In this document: in pieces, positions 27,526 through 35,524 of the stretch
How the letters are laid out: each line of letters begins with the position of its first letter
Numbering within the stretch: position 1 is the stretch's first letter
The notes under the pieces: model-generated
Database searches by the model: none
What the model saw: the letters and a program-made list of their open reading frames with translations, nothing else
What the model was told of the DNA's origin: nothing
Source of the DNA: an uncultured bacterium
GTDB taxonomy: Bacteria; Fidelibacterota; Marinisomatia; Marinisomatales; UBA1611
Length of the DNA: 64,000 bases
Direction: 5' to 3'
NCBI GenBank assembly: GCA_913020665.1
Contig: CAJVZI010000003.1
Coordinates: 6,122-70,121 of the forward strand
Program-made: the position numbers and the translations under genes

Positions 27526-27529
27526 TAAT

Positions 27530-27547
27530 AACGCTCATAACGCTCAT
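27530..27547 (+). promoter_or_regulatory. tandem 9-mer site b (AACGCTCAT AACGCTCAT), candidate operator
   Basis: This is a perfect direct repeat. It sits 7 nt upstream of TTGAAG (27555-27560) and 60 nt before the ATG at 27608. An inverted half-site AGCGTT follows at 27559-27564. Confidence 0.5.
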
Positions 27548-28571: not shown

Positions 28572-28581
28572 TATATAATAT

Positions 28582-28599
28582 AACGCTCATAACGCTCAT
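28582..28599 (+). promoter_or_regulatory. tandem 9-mer site c (AACGCTCAT AACGCTCAT), candidate operator
   Basis: This perfect direct repeat is identical to site b over 25 nt (28580-28604 versus 27528-27552). It sits 7 nt upstream of a consensus TTGACA. Confidence 0.5.
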
Positions 28600-28606
28600 T
28601 TAATTC

Positions 28607-28634
28607 TTGACATTGATTATATGGGCATTATAAT
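28607..28634 (+). promoter_or_regulatory. sigma-70-type promoter (TTGACA, 16-nt spacer, TATAAT) for the 28658-31035 operon
   Basis: A perfect -35 lies at 28607-28612 and a perfect -10 at 28629-28634, 23 nt before the ATG at 28658. Confidence 0.55.
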
Positions 28635-28657: not shown

Positions 28658-28939
28658 ATGTCAATATTAGATGCAGTCGCCAGAGGCGCAGACCTCAAAC
28701 ACTTTAACGAGAAAAAAGAGGTCAAGAATAATTTTGATGCGCGGAAAGCAGACCAAGACCTCAAAGCTTGCCCTGTGTGCAAGGCGGTATGGGAAATTAT
28801 GGTCTTCAATAAGACCATTGATTACAAATATTATCACAACTTCCCCAGATATGGAAAAGAGAAAGCCGTCTGTCCAAGTTGTACGATCAGGATTAGGAAT
28901 AAGTATTATCACAATGCAGAGGTGCAGGACCCAGCATGA
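28658..28939 (+). CDS. small zinc-ribbon protein (CPVC ... CPSC), unknown function
   Basis: Two CxxC pairs lie 35 aa apart. It has an SD-like GGAG and an ATGA overlap with the next gene. I prefer it over the overlapping alternative-frame ORFs. Confidence 0.55.
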   Translation: MSILDAVARGADLKHFNEKKEVKNNFDARKADQDLKACPVCKAVWEIMVFNKTIDYKYYHNFPRYGKEKAVCPSCTIRIRNKYYHNAEVQDPA

Positions 28940-31107: not shown

Positions 31108-32592
31108 ATGAAGGCCGTATTCATATATCCCAACCAGTTGTTTGAGAATCATCCATCTTTATCAAGGAGTAGAAAGATATTCTTGGTGCAAGACCCTCTA
31201 TTTTTTTCTGATAAACAATATCCAGTGGCATTTCACAAAAAGAAAATACTTTTACATTTCCTATCAATGGATGATTACAGAGATAATCTGGTGGATAGAG
31301 GATATGATGTTGAAGTCATTGCGTTCAATAGATTGCAAACAAAAGATCATACGCAGAAGATCATTAAAGAATATGAACTGTCAGAGATACATATTGCTGA
31401 TGTTGTAGACTATACTCTTGAAAAAAGAATCAAAGATGCAGCTTCTAAATTAAATGTAAGGCTATATTGGTATAACTCACCGATGTTCTTGCTCAACAAG
31501 GATGAAGTAGAAAATGATTTTAGAAAAAAGAATTTTCACTTTATGTCCAACTTCTACAAAAAACAAAGACGCAGGTACAATCTATTGATGGATGATGAAG
31601 GTAAACCGGAAGGAGGGAAATGGAGTTTTGATTTAGAAAATAGAAAAAAATTACCAAAGGGCATTCAAATTCCAGCAATAACAAAATTTGAGTACAACAA
31701 TAATAAAATTTTACGTGGAAATAGATTTATTAATAAATATTTTAAAAATAATATAGGGACTTCCAAAGATTTCAACTATCCTGTAAATCACAAACAAAGC
31801 AGGTTTGCATTTGATCAGTTTTTAGAGCATAAATTTCAATTATTTGGTCCTTATGAAGATGCTATATCTAAGCACAACCATAGCTTATTTCACTCAATAT
31901 TAACTCCATATCTTAATATTGGATTAATTACACCTAAGGAAATAATACAGAAAGTTATGGACTTCTCAGGTCTTAACTCTATACCATTGAATTCTATCGA
32001 GGGGTTTCTTAGGCAGATAATAGGATGGCGTGAGTTCATTAGGGGTGTATATACTGTGGATGGCGTAAAACAAAGAACGAGGAACTATTGGGGTTTTACA
32101 AAGGCTATTCCAAAAACATTTTATGATGGAACAACAGGTCTTGAACCCCTAGACAATTCTATTTCTCGTTGCTTGAAACATGGATATGCACATCATATCG
32201 AGAGACTGATGATCTTAGGTAATATTATGATACTCTCTCGCTTTGATCCAGACTCTGTATATCAATGGTTTATGGAATTTTTTATTGATGCTTATGATTG
32301 GGTTATGGTACCAAATATTTATGGGATGAGTCAATTTGCTGATGGCGGTTTAATGTCTACAAAGCCATACATAAGTGGAAGTAATTACATATTAAAAATG
32401 AGCGACTATAAAAAGGGTAGGTGGTCAGGTGTCTGGGATGCTCTATATTGGGAATTTATCAATTCAAATAGAGAATTCTTTTTGAAAAACCATAGAATGG
32501 CAATGATGGTATCAATGTATGATAAAAAACCAAAAAATATTAGATCAGAGTATTCATTTATCTATAAAGATTATCAATTAATGATTAGTTAA
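31108..32592 (+). CDS. cryptochrome/photolyase-family protein of the COG3046 / prokaryotic (6-4)-photolyase (CryB/PhrB) type
   Basis: It shows IGWREFIRGVY, GYAHHIERLMILGN, FIDAYDWVMVPNIYGMSQFADGG and KPYISGSNYILKMSDY. Confidence 0.8.
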   Translation: MKAVFIYPNQLFENHPSLSRSRKIFLVQDPLFFSDKQYPVAFHKKKILLHFLSMDDYRDNLVDRGYDVEVIAFNRLQTKDHTQKIIKEYELSEIHIADVVDYTLEKRIKDAASKLNVRLYWYNSPMFLLNKDEVENDFRKKNFHFMSNFYKKQRRRYNLLMDDEGKPEGGKWSFDLENRKKLPKGIQIPAITKFEYNNNKILRGNRFINKYFKNNIGTSKDFNYPVNHKQSRFAFDQFLEHKFQLFGPYEDAISKHNHSLFHSILTPYLNIGLITPKEIIQKVMDFSGLNSIPLNSIEGFLRQIIGWREFIRGVYTVDGVKQRTRNYWGFTKAIPKTFYDGTTGLEPLDNSISRCLKHGYAHHIERLMILGNIMILSRFDPDSVYQWFMEFFIDAYDWVMVPNIYGMSQFADGGLMSTKPYISGSNYILKMSDYKKGRWSGVWDALYWEFINSNREFFLKNHRMAMMVSMYDKKPKNIRSEYSFIYKDYQLMIS

Positions 32593-32639: not shown

Positions 32640-32657
32640 TTGAGCGTAATAAGCGTT
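32640..32657 (-). promoter_or_regulatory. tandem 9-mer site e, reverse orientation (AACGCTTAT TACGCTCAA on the minus strand)
   Basis: This is a degenerate copy of the same motif, within the 203-bp non-coding gap. Confidence 0.35.
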
Positions 32658-32719
32658 ATTAAGACTGTAAAATTAAATATTTAAAGAATTAGGTTTACTT
32701 TATAACATCATATATAAGG

Positions 32720-32753
32720 GTCCCTGTGACTAAGTGGTGAGAGTCACAGGGAC
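32720..32753. other. perfect 12-bp stem / 10-nt loop hairpin (GTCCCTGTGACT ... AGTCACAGGGAC)
   Basis: It is a GC-rich perfect inverted repeat in an AT-rich gap. Neither side has a clean U-tract. Confidence 0.5.
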
Positions 32754-32795
32754 TAAAATAGTTCAAACAAATTTTATTACGATTACTTATATAAA

Positions 32796-33188: not shown

Positions 33189-33211
33189 TATAAATGTATT
33201 ATTAATAATAT

Positions 33212-33229
33212 AATGCTCAAAACGCTCAT
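33212..33229 (+). promoter_or_regulatory. tandem 9-mer site d (AATGCTCAA AACGCTCAT), candidate auto-regulatory operator
   Basis: It sits 41 nt before the ATG of the MerR-like regulator gene. Confidence 0.4.
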
Positions 33230-33270
33230 AATATGTTTTAATTATTAAGAAATTAGGAGTATATTTAACT

Positions 33271-34155
33271 ATGAGATACCTCAGTTCTAAAGATGTCGCA
33301 GAAATACTAGGCATAAACATCTCAACTCTCAAACGCTGGACAGACAGTGGTGTATTGGAGTGTTCTAAAACAGCAGGTGGGCATAGGAAGTTCACTATGC
33401 AACATATTCGTAATTTCTATAAAAACAAGGGTGCCTCTGGAAGAAATAGTAATCTTGGTCTTGAAAATATCCAACATAAGAAAGTATATGATCTAATTAA
33501 CAAAAAAGATTTTAGTGGGCTTGCAAGAATACTAGCAGATGCCAGCTTGGAATCGGATGAGTTAAGTGTCAACACGGTCATAAATGGTGCTTATATGAAG
33601 GGAATCAACGTAGAGCTTATCTGTGATGAAATAGTTGAGCCTGCAAGTATGATAGTTGAGAACGCTCTTAGGCAAGGATACCTAAGTCATGTTGAAACAT
33701 TTATAAGTAGGAAAATGATGACACGTGTAGTAGAGGGTCTCAACCAAAATAAACCTAACGGTTCATTCAATGGTAAGACCGCTCTCTGTGTCAACTTTGA
33801 AGATAATTTACCTGACCTAGGTGTGGTTATGTCAGAAGTCGTACTTAGACATAATGGATATAATGTACTCAATACTGGATCTCATGCGGACCTTGGGAAT
33901 CTTCAAACAGTGATTGAAAAGAAGAGAGTCGACCTGGTTCTATTCTTTCTTTGTGATATGCAATGTTGTATGGCAACAGTAAAAGATAATCTAGAAAAAA
34001 CAGAAATAAAGACAAAAGAAATTACTGAATTAGCTAGGGAGCAAGGCGTTAAGGTATTGTTTGGTGGAACAGGCCTGCAGTTTTTACCAAGTGTTATCAA
34101 TTCAACAGATGCCACTTTTATAAAATATTCCGATCTCAAACAGATCATAGTTTAA
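33271..34155 (+). CDS. MerR-family HTH regulator fused to a B12-binding-like (helical bundle + Rossmann) domain; CarH/LitR-like architecture
   Basis: The N-terminus is a MerR/excisionase-type HTH (YLSSKDVAEILGINISTLKRWTDSGVL). The C-terminal GKTALCVNFEDNLPDLGVVMSEVVLRHNGYNVLNTG ... VDLVLFF segment follows the cobalamin-binding Rossmann pattern. Confidence 0.7.
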   Translation: MRYLSSKDVAEILGINISTLKRWTDSGVLECSKTAGGHRKFTMQHIRNFYKNKGASGRNSNLGLENIQHKKVYDLINKKDFSGLARILADASLESDELSVNTVINGAYMKGINVELICDEIVEPASMIVENALRQGYLSHVETFISRKMMTRVVEGLNQNKPNGSFNGKTALCVNFEDNLPDLGVVMSEVVLRHNGYNVLNTGSHADLGNLQTVIEKKRVDLVLFFLCDMQCCMATVKDNLEKTEIKTKEITELAREQGVKVLFGGTGLQFLPSVINSTDATFIKYSDLKQIIV

Positions 34156-34183: not shown

Positions 34184-35524
34184 ATGATCGATCCAAGTAG
34201 GATTCGTACTCTCAAAGCTGGTGCGTTTGGTGGGAAAGCTGTCCTCTATTGGATGATCAGAGACAAGAGAGTATCAGATAATTGGTCTTTGCTTGTAGCG
34301 CAACAGATCGCTATAAAAAATAAGGTACCCCTAATTGTTTGCTTCCAATTTATCGGGAATTTCCCGGACTCAAACATCAGACAAAATGGATTTTTATTTA
34401 AAGGGCTATTAGAAACACGACATACATTACAAAAATTGAATATTGAGTTTTTATTTTTACAAGGTAGGCCTGAAAAAGTAATTAATCAACTAATTGAAAA
34501 GAGGTCTATTGGTACGGTCGTCGTTGATCATAATCCTTTAAATGTTTACCGTAAGAGAATAAAAAGGGTGATTGGTAAAACGGATATCCCGTTTTACCAA
34601 GTAGATGCTCACAACATTGTTCCATGCTGGAAAGCATCCGGCAAAAAAGAGTATGCGGCATATACAATAAGGCCAAAGATCAAAAATAATTTGAAGAGAT
34701 ATCTAACGGATATACCTCAGGTTATTAGACATCCTTATGGTACTTCACAAATGAAAGATCTATCACTAAATAGCCTTTTAAGTGGTATTGTCCAAGATAG
34801 CACAGTTAAAGAAGTCGATTGGGTCAATCCTGGTGAAATAGCTGCAAAAGATATCTTGAACAAATTAAAGACTACATTAAAAGGTTATAGCTCTAATCGA
34901 AATGATCCAACAAAAGCAGCATTAAGTGATTTAAGCCCCTATTTTCATTTTGGTCATATTGCTCCACAAAGAGTTGCATGGGAGATACATAAATCAAAAT
35001 TGCAAAAAGAGGACAAGGATGCATTTCTTGAAGAGATGATCATACGGCGCGAATTATCTGATAACTTTTGTGAATATGAACCAGAATATGATCAATTTGA
35101 AGGGTTCCATGCCTGGTCACAAAAAACATTAAATGAACACCGTAATGATGAAAGAGAATATATTTATCCATTAGGTCAATTTGAAGCTGCGGAAACTCAT
35201 GATGATTTGTGGAATGCAGCCCAGAATGAGATGAAAATTACTGGAAAAATGCATGGTTATATGCGTATGTATTGGGCAAAGAAAATATTAGAATGGACCC
35301 CATCACCTGAGATCGCTCAACAGATTGCTATCGATTTGAATGATAAATACGAGTTAGATGGAAGAGACCCCAATGGATATACAGGTATTGCTTGGAGCAT
35401 AGGTGGGATACATGACAGGGCTTGGTTTGAAAGGCCTATATTTGGCAAGATAAGATATATGAATTATAATGGATGTAAATCTAAGTTTGATGTCATGAAA
35501 TATATTGAAATGCATAACTCATAA
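34184..35524 (+). CDS. phr: class II CPD deoxyribodipyrimidine photolyase
   Basis: The N-terminus is class II-specific (IRTLKAGAFGGKAVLYWMIRDKRVSDNWSLL). The C-terminus shows GKMHGYMRMYWAKKILEW and DGRDPNGYTGIAWSIGGIHDRAW. Confidence 0.9.
   Translation: MIDPSRIRTLKAGAFGGKAVLYWMIRDKRVSDNWSLLVAQQIAIKNKVPLIVCFQFIGNFPDSNIRQNGFLFKGLLETRHTLQKLNIEFLFLQGRPEKVINQLIEKRSIGTVVVDHNPLNVYRKRIKRVIGKTDIPFYQVDAHNIVPCWKASGKKEYAAYTIRPKIKNNLKRYLTDIPQVIRHPYGTSQMKDLSLNSLLSGIVQDSTVKEVDWVNPGEIAAKDILNKLKTTLKGYSSNRNDPTKAALSDLSPYFHFGHIAPQRVAWEIHKSKLQKEDKDAFLEEMIIRRELSDNFCEYEPEYDQFEGFHAWSQKTLNEHRNDEREYIYPLGQFEAAETHDDLWNAAQNEMKITGKMHGYMRMYWAKKILEWTPSPEIAQQIAIDLNDKYELDGRDPNGYTGIAWSIGGIHDRAWFERPIFGKIRYMNYNGCKSKFDVMKYIEMHNS

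Follow-up and report, generated by a model that had tools for sequence, protein, structure and literature searches.

CarH-type proteins serve as the model for light sensing by means of vitamin B12 and have found use as optogenetic tools. CarH and the class I LitR proteins of Thermus, Myxococcus and Bacillus combine a classical MerR helix-turn-helix (HTH) with 11-bp repeats as DNA sites and adenosylcobalamin (AdoCbl)-dependent tetramerisation via the motifs Wx9EH and ExHxxG. For CtMerR of Chloracidobacterium thermophilum (8JBS/8JBT) AdoCbl binding and a response to light were shown experimentally, and SignatureFinder defined GxxW, EH, GxxH and GxxxP as the signature of the light-responsive members of its family (Yu et al. 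2024, PMC11796333). The cobalamin-binding motif has also been formulated as D/ExHx2G/P-x41-SxT/V-x22-27-GG (PMC9304148). Regulators with a cobalamin fold that work without B12 are known as well, for example CarA, LitR classes II-V, SCHIC domains and a His-to-Arg negative control (PMC11796333). Here we analysed a regulator gene at positions 33,271 to 34,155 of a 64,000-nucleotide stretch of contig CAJVZI010000003.1 (assembly GCA_913020665.1, positions 6,122 to 70,121), referred to below as the window. The host belongs to SAR406 (Marinimicrobia), which is among the most abundant uncultured lineages of the ocean, where B12 is scarce. The regulator is built like an AdoCbl photoreceptor and probably responds to a signal different from B12 in controlling genes for the repair of light damage.

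The regulator and its closest relatives

The protein encoded by this open reading frame (ORF) contains the sequence strings quoted in an initial annotation of the window, which had described, by eye, a MerR-type HTH, a helical segment and a Rossmann-like module resembling the cobalamin-binding fold. Both the domain order and the fold hold up in profile and structure comparisons. In Pfam, HTH_17 and MerR_1 span residues 3-50 (MerR_1 with 37.1 bits at a cut-off of 21.6 bits), and the B12-binding profile PF02310 matches residues 171-274 with 24.3 bits (E=3e-5; 25.4 bits in the genome-wide search), which is below its gathering cut-off of 32.1 bits. Weak NCBIfam matches were obtained to BldC, CarH and the corrinoid proteins MtaC and MtgC. 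TransRegCarH (NF052513) reached 27.2 bits, far under its cut-off of 400 bits, so that the protein falls outside this family, and BldC (NF033787) reached 34.4 bits, under a cut-off of 77 bits, which together with the multi-domain build places the regulator outside the BldC family.

We built an AlphaFold2 model on an alignment of 23 members of the regulator's own clade (mean predicted local distance difference test score (pLDDT) 80.5, predicted template modelling score 0.73), in which the winged HTH is joined by a flexible linker (residues 54-65) to a helical bundle (67-160), after which comes a five-stranded alpha/beta module (170-293). The top Foldseek match of the model is the cobalamin-binding domain of CtMerR with a template modelling (TM) score of 0.82 on the target. 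Full-length CarH, photocobilin, AppA SCHIC and AerR rank behind it. The matches to 8jbs, 5c8d and 8c31 have a probability of 1.00, and the model contains both the four-helix bundle and the five-stranded Rossmann fold. CtMerR is also the closest solved relative in sequence (8jbs_A, E=3e-24, residues 5-268), and homology over the full length is further documented by an hhalign probability of 100% and by the position of the regulator inside the family tree. Thus, homology to B12-binding domains is clear from the profile and fold comparisons despite the low PF02310 score, and these comparisons show that the regulator shares its ancestry with the AdoCbl photoreceptor-regulators and has preserved all three parts of their fold.

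The label CarH/LitR-like given in the initial annotation applies in part. The regulator is homologous to CarH and resembles CarH and class I LitR in its fold (Foldseek E ~1e-9), in the photoprotective nature of the associated genes and in tandem direct-repeat operators near the -35 element, but their classical MerR HTH and their two cobalamin motifs are not found in it. Its HTH is of the BldC/excisionase-like subtype instead of the RxWERRY type of CarH, and the structure of BldC (6ama) matches its DNA-binding domain with E=0.015. The regulator is thus a member of the CtMerR branch with a BldC-type HTH and not a classical CarH/LitR protein. With CtMerR it shares the architecture, the type of DNA-binding domain and, by profile comparison, the protein family. 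The two differ in that CtMerR binds AdoCbl via a Trp, E166, H167 and a lower axial His and responds to green light, whereas the regulator has L133, T143, F144 and P181 at these positions and carries an additional C-x3-CC loop.

Loss of the cobalamin contacts and the remodelled pocket

In the alignment with CtMerR the segment D-L-H-E-I-A of CtMerR lies over N179-L-P181-D-L-G184 of the regulator and W-x9-E-H over L133 ... T143-F144, and the alignment with MtaC likewise sets its ligand His over Pro181. The register was checked by profile-profile comparison (hhalign) of the 23 clade members with 22 canonical relatives, which aligned over 289 columns with a probability of 100% (E=1.6e-63) in the identical register. 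In the joint alignment the cobalt-ligand column is His in 22/22 canonical sequences and Pro in every row of the clade. The Wx9EH columns behave alike, as Trp (22/22) is replaced by Leu in 100% of the clade and His (22/22) by Phe in 87%. P181 and D182 are invariant among 122 clade sequences down to 30% identity. The initial annotation was thus right in reporting that the cobalt-coordinating His and the Wx9EH motif are missing, and neither of the two outcomes it had named as speaking against its claim, a conserved His in register or a C-terminal domain unrelated to B12-binding domains, was found. We rejected the possibility that the His had merely been mis-aligned by eye since the pairwise alignments with CtMerR and MtaC, the profile-profile alignment and the MAFFT alignment all give Pro181.

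The replacements extend over the whole cofactor site. Fourteen columns of the sensor region are conserved to at least 85% in the canonical set; seven of them are kept in the clade (D119, V129, L192, G196, G203, G265, G266) and seven have changed (G to E130, W to L133, E to T143, H to F144, H to P181, P to D207, S to M234). The changed columns coincide with or adjoin the published contact motifs GxxW, EH, GxxH, GxxxP and D/ExHx2G...SxT/V...GG. Accordingly, the SignatureFinder signature is absent from the regulator, with the Trp, the EH pair, the lower His, the Pro and an invariant Gly at the third position ahead of the Trp all replaced. L133, T143 and F144 stand where Wx9EH forms the cap over the adenosyl group, and N-L-P-D-L-G with the invariant Pro181 stands where (D/E)xHxxG provides the lower axial His. 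The Ser column of SxT/V corresponds to M234 (or F226 by spacing) and is accompanied by an 8-residue insertion, and only the GG of this motif is kept.

This insertion, which is missing from all 22 canonical relatives, sits where canonical domains have SxT/V and reads L-C228-D-M-Q-C232-C233. C228, Q231, C232 and C233 are invariant in the 122 clade sequences down to 30% identity, and the three Cys are also kept in a branch of family f17 that is 31-33% identical. The C228-x3-C232-C233 loop is predicted to lie at the edge of what was the corrin pocket, and the bundle helix turned towards this pocket carries the conserved residues H140, E142 and R147. For an entropy comparison we thinned the clade to 41 sequences under 85% identity. 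The four loops lining the former corrin pocket have a mean entropy of 0.39 bits with 16/37 invariant positions, as compared to 1.49 bits and 3/90 invariant positions for the remaining Rossmann module and 0.75 bits for the DNA-binding domain. Since conservation within the protein is highest in the remodelled pocket, the sequence comparison indicates that this pocket is functional, not decayed, and under stronger constraint than any other part, and we rejected a decayed relic domain on the same grounds. The initial annotation had recognised the lost motifs but had overlooked the insertion with its three invariant Cys, and the pocket is remodelled and highly conserved rather than merely degenerate.

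In a census of 101 full-length representatives at 50% identity most distant homologues keep the Trp, the EH pair and the His. In a maximum-likelihood tree of 123 sequences the form with Pro and three Cys (Pro+Cys3) is a single branch (support 100/99). Its sister group (98/90) comprises 35 canonical sequences, among them every canonical one from Marinimicrobia. The His is lost in 21 further representatives outside the clade, at several unrelated positions and by at least four changes on the tree, indicating from the sequences that the CtMerR family lost it on several independent occasions. As it was lost this often (21/123), B12-independent descendants may be a common, unstudied fate of the CtMerR-type photoreceptor. 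At least three other CtMerR-like lineages lack both the ligand His and the Cys insertion, namely a His-to-Tyr, a 'GLPD/GLxE' and a fully degenerate type (groups P0241, P0243, P0257, P0260, P0268; P0170, P0210, P0224, P0242, P0251; P0164, P0176, P0197, P0240); the His-to-Tyr type is present among the 50%-identity representatives and matches His-less CtMerR-type lineages of planctomycetes.

The phylum was sampled with 301 genomes. The close form of the regulator (at least 44% identity) occurs in 16 of them and a form of 27-33% identity in three from family f17, and about 28 have a distant homologue only (25-32% identity). We extracted 20 distant homologues and read their motifs. The three f17 proteins show the Trp-to-Leu and His-to-Pro replacements and CDRQCC, yet keep the EH pair, and the other 17 have canonical motifs throughout. 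One genome (G268, sequence checked) encodes both a Pro+Cys3 and a canonical copy; in two others (G254, G300) a second, more distant homologue accompanies the regulator. A canonical-type homologue lies beside CFA, desaturase, DUF1295 and SOUL genes in G293 and G280, so a similar gene set is paired with a B12-type regulator in sister lineages.

The coexistence of Pro+Cys3 and canonical paralogues parallels, by analogy, that of CarA and CarH, with a more radical loss. CarA of Myxococcus xanthus likewise derives from a B12 photoreceptor, stands beside the canonical form in its lineage and represses similar genes without B12 (PMC9304148). It differs in retaining the His motif and EH, having lost only the Trp, and in being released by the antirepressor CarS, whereas in the regulator the loss is complete and a Cys loop is gained. 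The comparison is an analogy only; a CarS-like partner of the regulator is not known, CarS homologues not having been searched for. In the literature searched on the SAR406 variant we did not find the combination of a BldC-type head, an invariant Pro, the loss of all signatures and a C-x3-CC loop in a monophyletic clade. The case would show how evolution proceeded on the CarH scaffold after B12 was dropped, with a coordinated replacement of all cofactor contacts and the gain of a strictly conserved Cys loop.

Candidate operators and possible input signals

As stated in the initial annotation, the regulator gene lies between two photolyase-family genes, a CryB/PhrB-type gene upstream and a class II cyclobutane pyrimidine dimer (CPD) photolyase gene downstream, the latter probably being co-transcribed with it. 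Across 34 related loci the same or a closely similar gene order is found again; their labels are nearly all Marinimicrobia/Neomarinimicrobiota or unclassified. The copy of a tandem 9-mer that had been noticed upstream of the gene was found again; the window holds four copies (0.12 expected). In the related loci we searched for the core GCTCA[AT]AACGCTC with up to two mismatches. It is positioned 43-46 nucleotides 5' of the regulator ATG in 31/33 loci, which backs the earlier proposal of auto-regulation, and also about 61-63 nucleotides 5' of the 93-aa and 163-aa genes or of VOC/SDR genes. The loci with 45% identical regulators (L033, L034, L036) carry a different repeat upstream of the gene, as expected if regulator and DNA site co-evolve. 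These repeats (GCGCGATAT-GAGCGAT, TTGCACGTA-TTGCACGTT) consist of two copies, partly inverted, and could help to map the residues of the HTH that determine specificity.

BldC of Streptomyces, a single domain of 68 residues without a sensor module, has the same type of HTH as the regulator, and its protomers each bind a 9-bp direct repeat in a head-to-tail arrangement (PMC5859096). The BldC-type HTHs of the regulator would be expected to occupy the 9-bp repeats with the same periodicity, also head-to-tail. The repeat ends about 8 nucleotides ahead of a -35-like CTTGAC, and the TTGACA-N16-TATAAT at 28607-28634 is the sole perfect (12/12) sigma-70 promoter in 9 kb. As the sites adjoin near-consensus promoters, their position suggests a repressor role, and the regulator would repress the promoters of the island, its own included.

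The regulator is a derived and most likely B12-independent member of the CtMerR/CarH scaffold, and we consider the chances about even that it acts in this way on the photolyase island and receives its input signal at the Cys loop. The remodelled pocket would then be the signal input, with the three Cys, in the reading that we favour, serving as a thiol switch or as a metal or Fe-S site that reports light-generated oxidative stress. Modification of this site would alter oligomerisation or DNA binding, by which the photolyases, the glutathione peroxidase and the lipid-protection genes would be de-repressed. The invariance of the Cys and a regulon containing glutathione peroxidase, photolyase and lipid-protection genes fit this, as does the homologous regulon of Rhodobacter, which is under the control of the zinc-thiolate anti-sigma factor ChrR. 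More tentatively, and with somewhat less than even confidence, the invariant C-x3-C-C loop and the conserved polar residues near it may make the former corrin pocket a new sensory site on the CarH scaffold, be it a thiol switch, a metal/Fe-S centre or a Cys-ligated corrinoid, which would define a new class of CarH/LitR/CtMerR proteins. If the Cys loop is a sensor it would give SAR406 a B12-sparing switch for photolyases and anti-oxidant genes, and with the operator defined and a shortlist of residues at hand (C228, C232, C233, P181, D182, H140, R147) B12-free light-stress sensing becomes testable in E. coli.

Several points weigh against a B12-independent Cys-loop repressor. AdoCbl is made and used by the cell and is thus available to the regulator, as the host genome, which is 70% complete, encodes a PduO-type adenosyltransferase, two methylmalonyl-CoA-mutase-type genes and MetH. 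We rejected an absence of AdoCbl as explanation for the His loss on this basis; a search of the 70%-complete genome detected no CobS. Corrinoids can also be bound without a His ligand, as in base-off/His-off and base-on binders such as the corrinoid Fe-S protein. The Cys loop is modelled at low confidence (pLDDT <50 at residues 234-236), and the f17 branch does not conserve C173 and H205, two residues that could complete a metal site. Finally, we infer the signalling role of the Cys from the sequence, and the choice between repressor and activator comes solely from site position and promoter strength.

The initial annotation had offered a different mode of cobalamin binding, another ligand or independence of B12 as options, which we judge to be the right set, and the conserved pocket can be accounted for in other ways within and beyond it. 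The regulator might sense nothing itself and be the effector of a separate blue-light flavoprotein, CryB-type or class II photolyase, that docks on the His-less domain in the light and releases it from DNA. The conserved pocket surface could serve such docking, and the CryB-type gene adjoins the regulator in most of 33 loci, also in those with 44-45% identity. The cobalamin-like SCHIC domain of AppA is bound by CryB (PMC3401432) and also stands among the structural matches (4heh, TM 0.74), and PmSB-LOV inhibits the class II LitR PmlR2 (PMC9758184). SCHIC of Rhodobacter sphaeroides is comparable as a cobalamin-fold domain in light and redox signalling that does not bind cobalamin and is bound by a CryB-type protein; it differs in binding heme and in belonging to a BLUF-containing antirepressor that does not bind DNA. 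Class II LitR proteins of Pseudomonas (PplR/PmlR2) are comparable in their B12-independent control of photolyase, furan-fatty-acid and related genes, but keep the helical bundle alone, followed by an unrelated C-terminus, and receive their input from a short LOV protein, so that the regulator with its Rossmann module does not belong to class II. The distribution of the genes makes a flavoprotein partner unlikely in our view. The CryB-type gene is a frequent but not an obligatory neighbour: it was not found in the regulator-bearing genomes G244 (99% complete), G233 (92%) and G300, none of 14 f17 genomes, including the three with the Pro+Cys3 form, yielded it, and it is present in 14 f3 genomes without the regulator. 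Neither photolyase is nearby at four loci (L009, L021, L024, L025), and no NCRFL LOV signature or BLUF domain was detected in the 70%-complete host genome. The phylum-wide presence/absence comparison thus weakened the neighbouring CryB-type protein as obligatory partner.

Somewhat more doubtful is a tetrapyrrole bound in a new mode, i.e. a corrinoid held base-on or via a Cys thiolate, or a heme, which would leave the regulator a sensor of light or redox state in its own right. The fold with its two subdomains, the GG motif and a highly conserved pocket are retained, the f17 branch still has the EH pair, H140, E142 and R147 are conserved on the pocket-facing helix, AdoCbl metabolism is present in the cell, and SCHIC domains bind heme in place of cobalamin (PMC3401432). 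All this would have to be reconciled with the replacement of seven conserved cofactor-contact columns, among them the Trp cap and the Ser of the nucleotide tail, with the 8-residue insertion at the mouth of the nucleotide-tail pocket and with a beta-1 loop dominated by acidic residues. We know of no characterised CarH-type protein that uses a Cys ligand. We give even less credence to a signal-blind constitutive repressor or activator whose cobalamin fold is an oligomerisation scaffold and whose output is set by its own level via autoregulation. An input-free light-stress regulon would be odd, and a scaffold leaves unexplained why conservation peaks in the four pocket loops instead of the known interface regions and why three Cys are invariant to 30% identity, even though the auto-operator is conserved, CarA is a constitutive dimer without need for B12 (PMC9304148) and the C-terminus of class II LitR has been proposed to be an oligomerisation domain (PMC9758184).

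The surrounding island

The coordinates of the regulator, its motifs, the neighbouring photolyase genes and the candidate operators are collected in Table 1.

Table 1. Positions in the window of the regulator gene, its domains and motifs, the flanking photolyase-family genes and the tandem 9-mer copies.
Feature	Position	Strand	Description and basis
Regulator gene	33271..34155	+	294 aa plus stop; BldC/CtMerR-type HTH, helical bundle, Rossmann-like cobalamin-binding fold (ORF list, Pfam, 8jbs E=3e-24, AlphaFold2, Foldseek)
DNA-binding domain, residues 1-52	33271..33426	+	Winged HTH with GGHRKF wing; HTH_17 38 bits, MerR_1 37 bits
Helical bundle, residues 67-160	33469..33750	+	AlphaFold2 helices, hhalign register
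Wx9EH position, L133 ... T143-F144	33667-33702	+	hhalign register
Loop after beta-1, E177-D-N-L-P181-D-L-G184	33799..33822	+	Replaces (D/E)xHxxG; Pro181 codon 33811-33813
Clade-specific 8-residue insertion	33940..33978	+	At SxT/V position; C228 33952-54, C232 33964-66, C233 33967-69, plus Q231
G265-G266	34063..34068	+	Retained GG of the classic B12 motif; invariant in clade and canonical relatives
CryB/PhrB-family (FeS-BCP) photolyase relative	31108..32592	+	PF04244; 8ijy, 4dja, 3zxs at E=1e-71 to 1e-77
Class II CPD photolyase	34184..35524	+	28 nucleotides downstream of regulator; 2xry, 8oet at E ~1e-143; synteny
Tandem 9-mer upstream of regulator	33210..33228	-	Plus strand ATAATGCTCAAAACGCTCA; candidate auto-operator
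Tandem 9-mer ahead of 93-aa zinc-ribbon/VOC/SDR/GPx (glutathione peroxidase) operon	28580..28598	-	8 nucleotides upstream of TTGACA-N16-TATAAT (28607-28634); layout conserved in relatives
Tandem 9-mer upstream of 163-aa/161-aa gene pair	27528..27546	-	Motif scan
Reversed tandem 9-mer copy	32641..32659	+	Between CryB-type gene and 130-aa membrane-protein gene; motif scan

The CryB/PhrB-family protein has a deletion of about 10 residues ('KMSDY....KKGRWSGVW') where 8ijy has C-x2-C and a later Cys, and, judging by its sequence, is probably without the [4Fe-4S] cluster that FeS-BCP proteins typically have. The 93-aa protein (28658-28939) contains two CxxC pairs, and its gene comes first in the operon behind the perfect sigma-70 promoter. 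No other protein of the island is as conserved (95% identical at locus L005 as compared to 83% for the regulator), and it could be a small regulatory partner. None of the small regulon proteins of 93, 163, 161 and 107 aa matched a Pfam family.

Five to six nucleotides before the regulator ATG a TATATT is conserved in the window (33260-33273) and in at least eight related loci, and a Shine-Dalgarno-like AGGAG is not, which together suggest that the regulator transcript is leaderless. Several other regulon promoters in the relatives also have their -10 element within about 10 nucleotides of the ATG. No cobalamin riboswitch or other Rfam family was found in the window. Between the reversed repeat and the 130-aa membrane-protein gene lies a perfect 12-bp GC-rich hairpin (GTCCCTGTGACT ... 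AGTCACAGGGAC, 32717-32762) without a U-tract.

Outside the window, the host genome contains copies of the 9-mer at C4:7892, C8:11952 and C64:2386. The copy on C4 precedes a -35/-10 pair and a gene for a MarR-family regulator, followed by TolC-like, membrane-fusion and RND efflux genes. Elsewhere in the same genome (C16:24000-26200) a 397-aa ORF without a LOV cysteine motif fuses a PAS_9 domain to a polytopic membrane domain of the UbiA-like prenyltransferase type.

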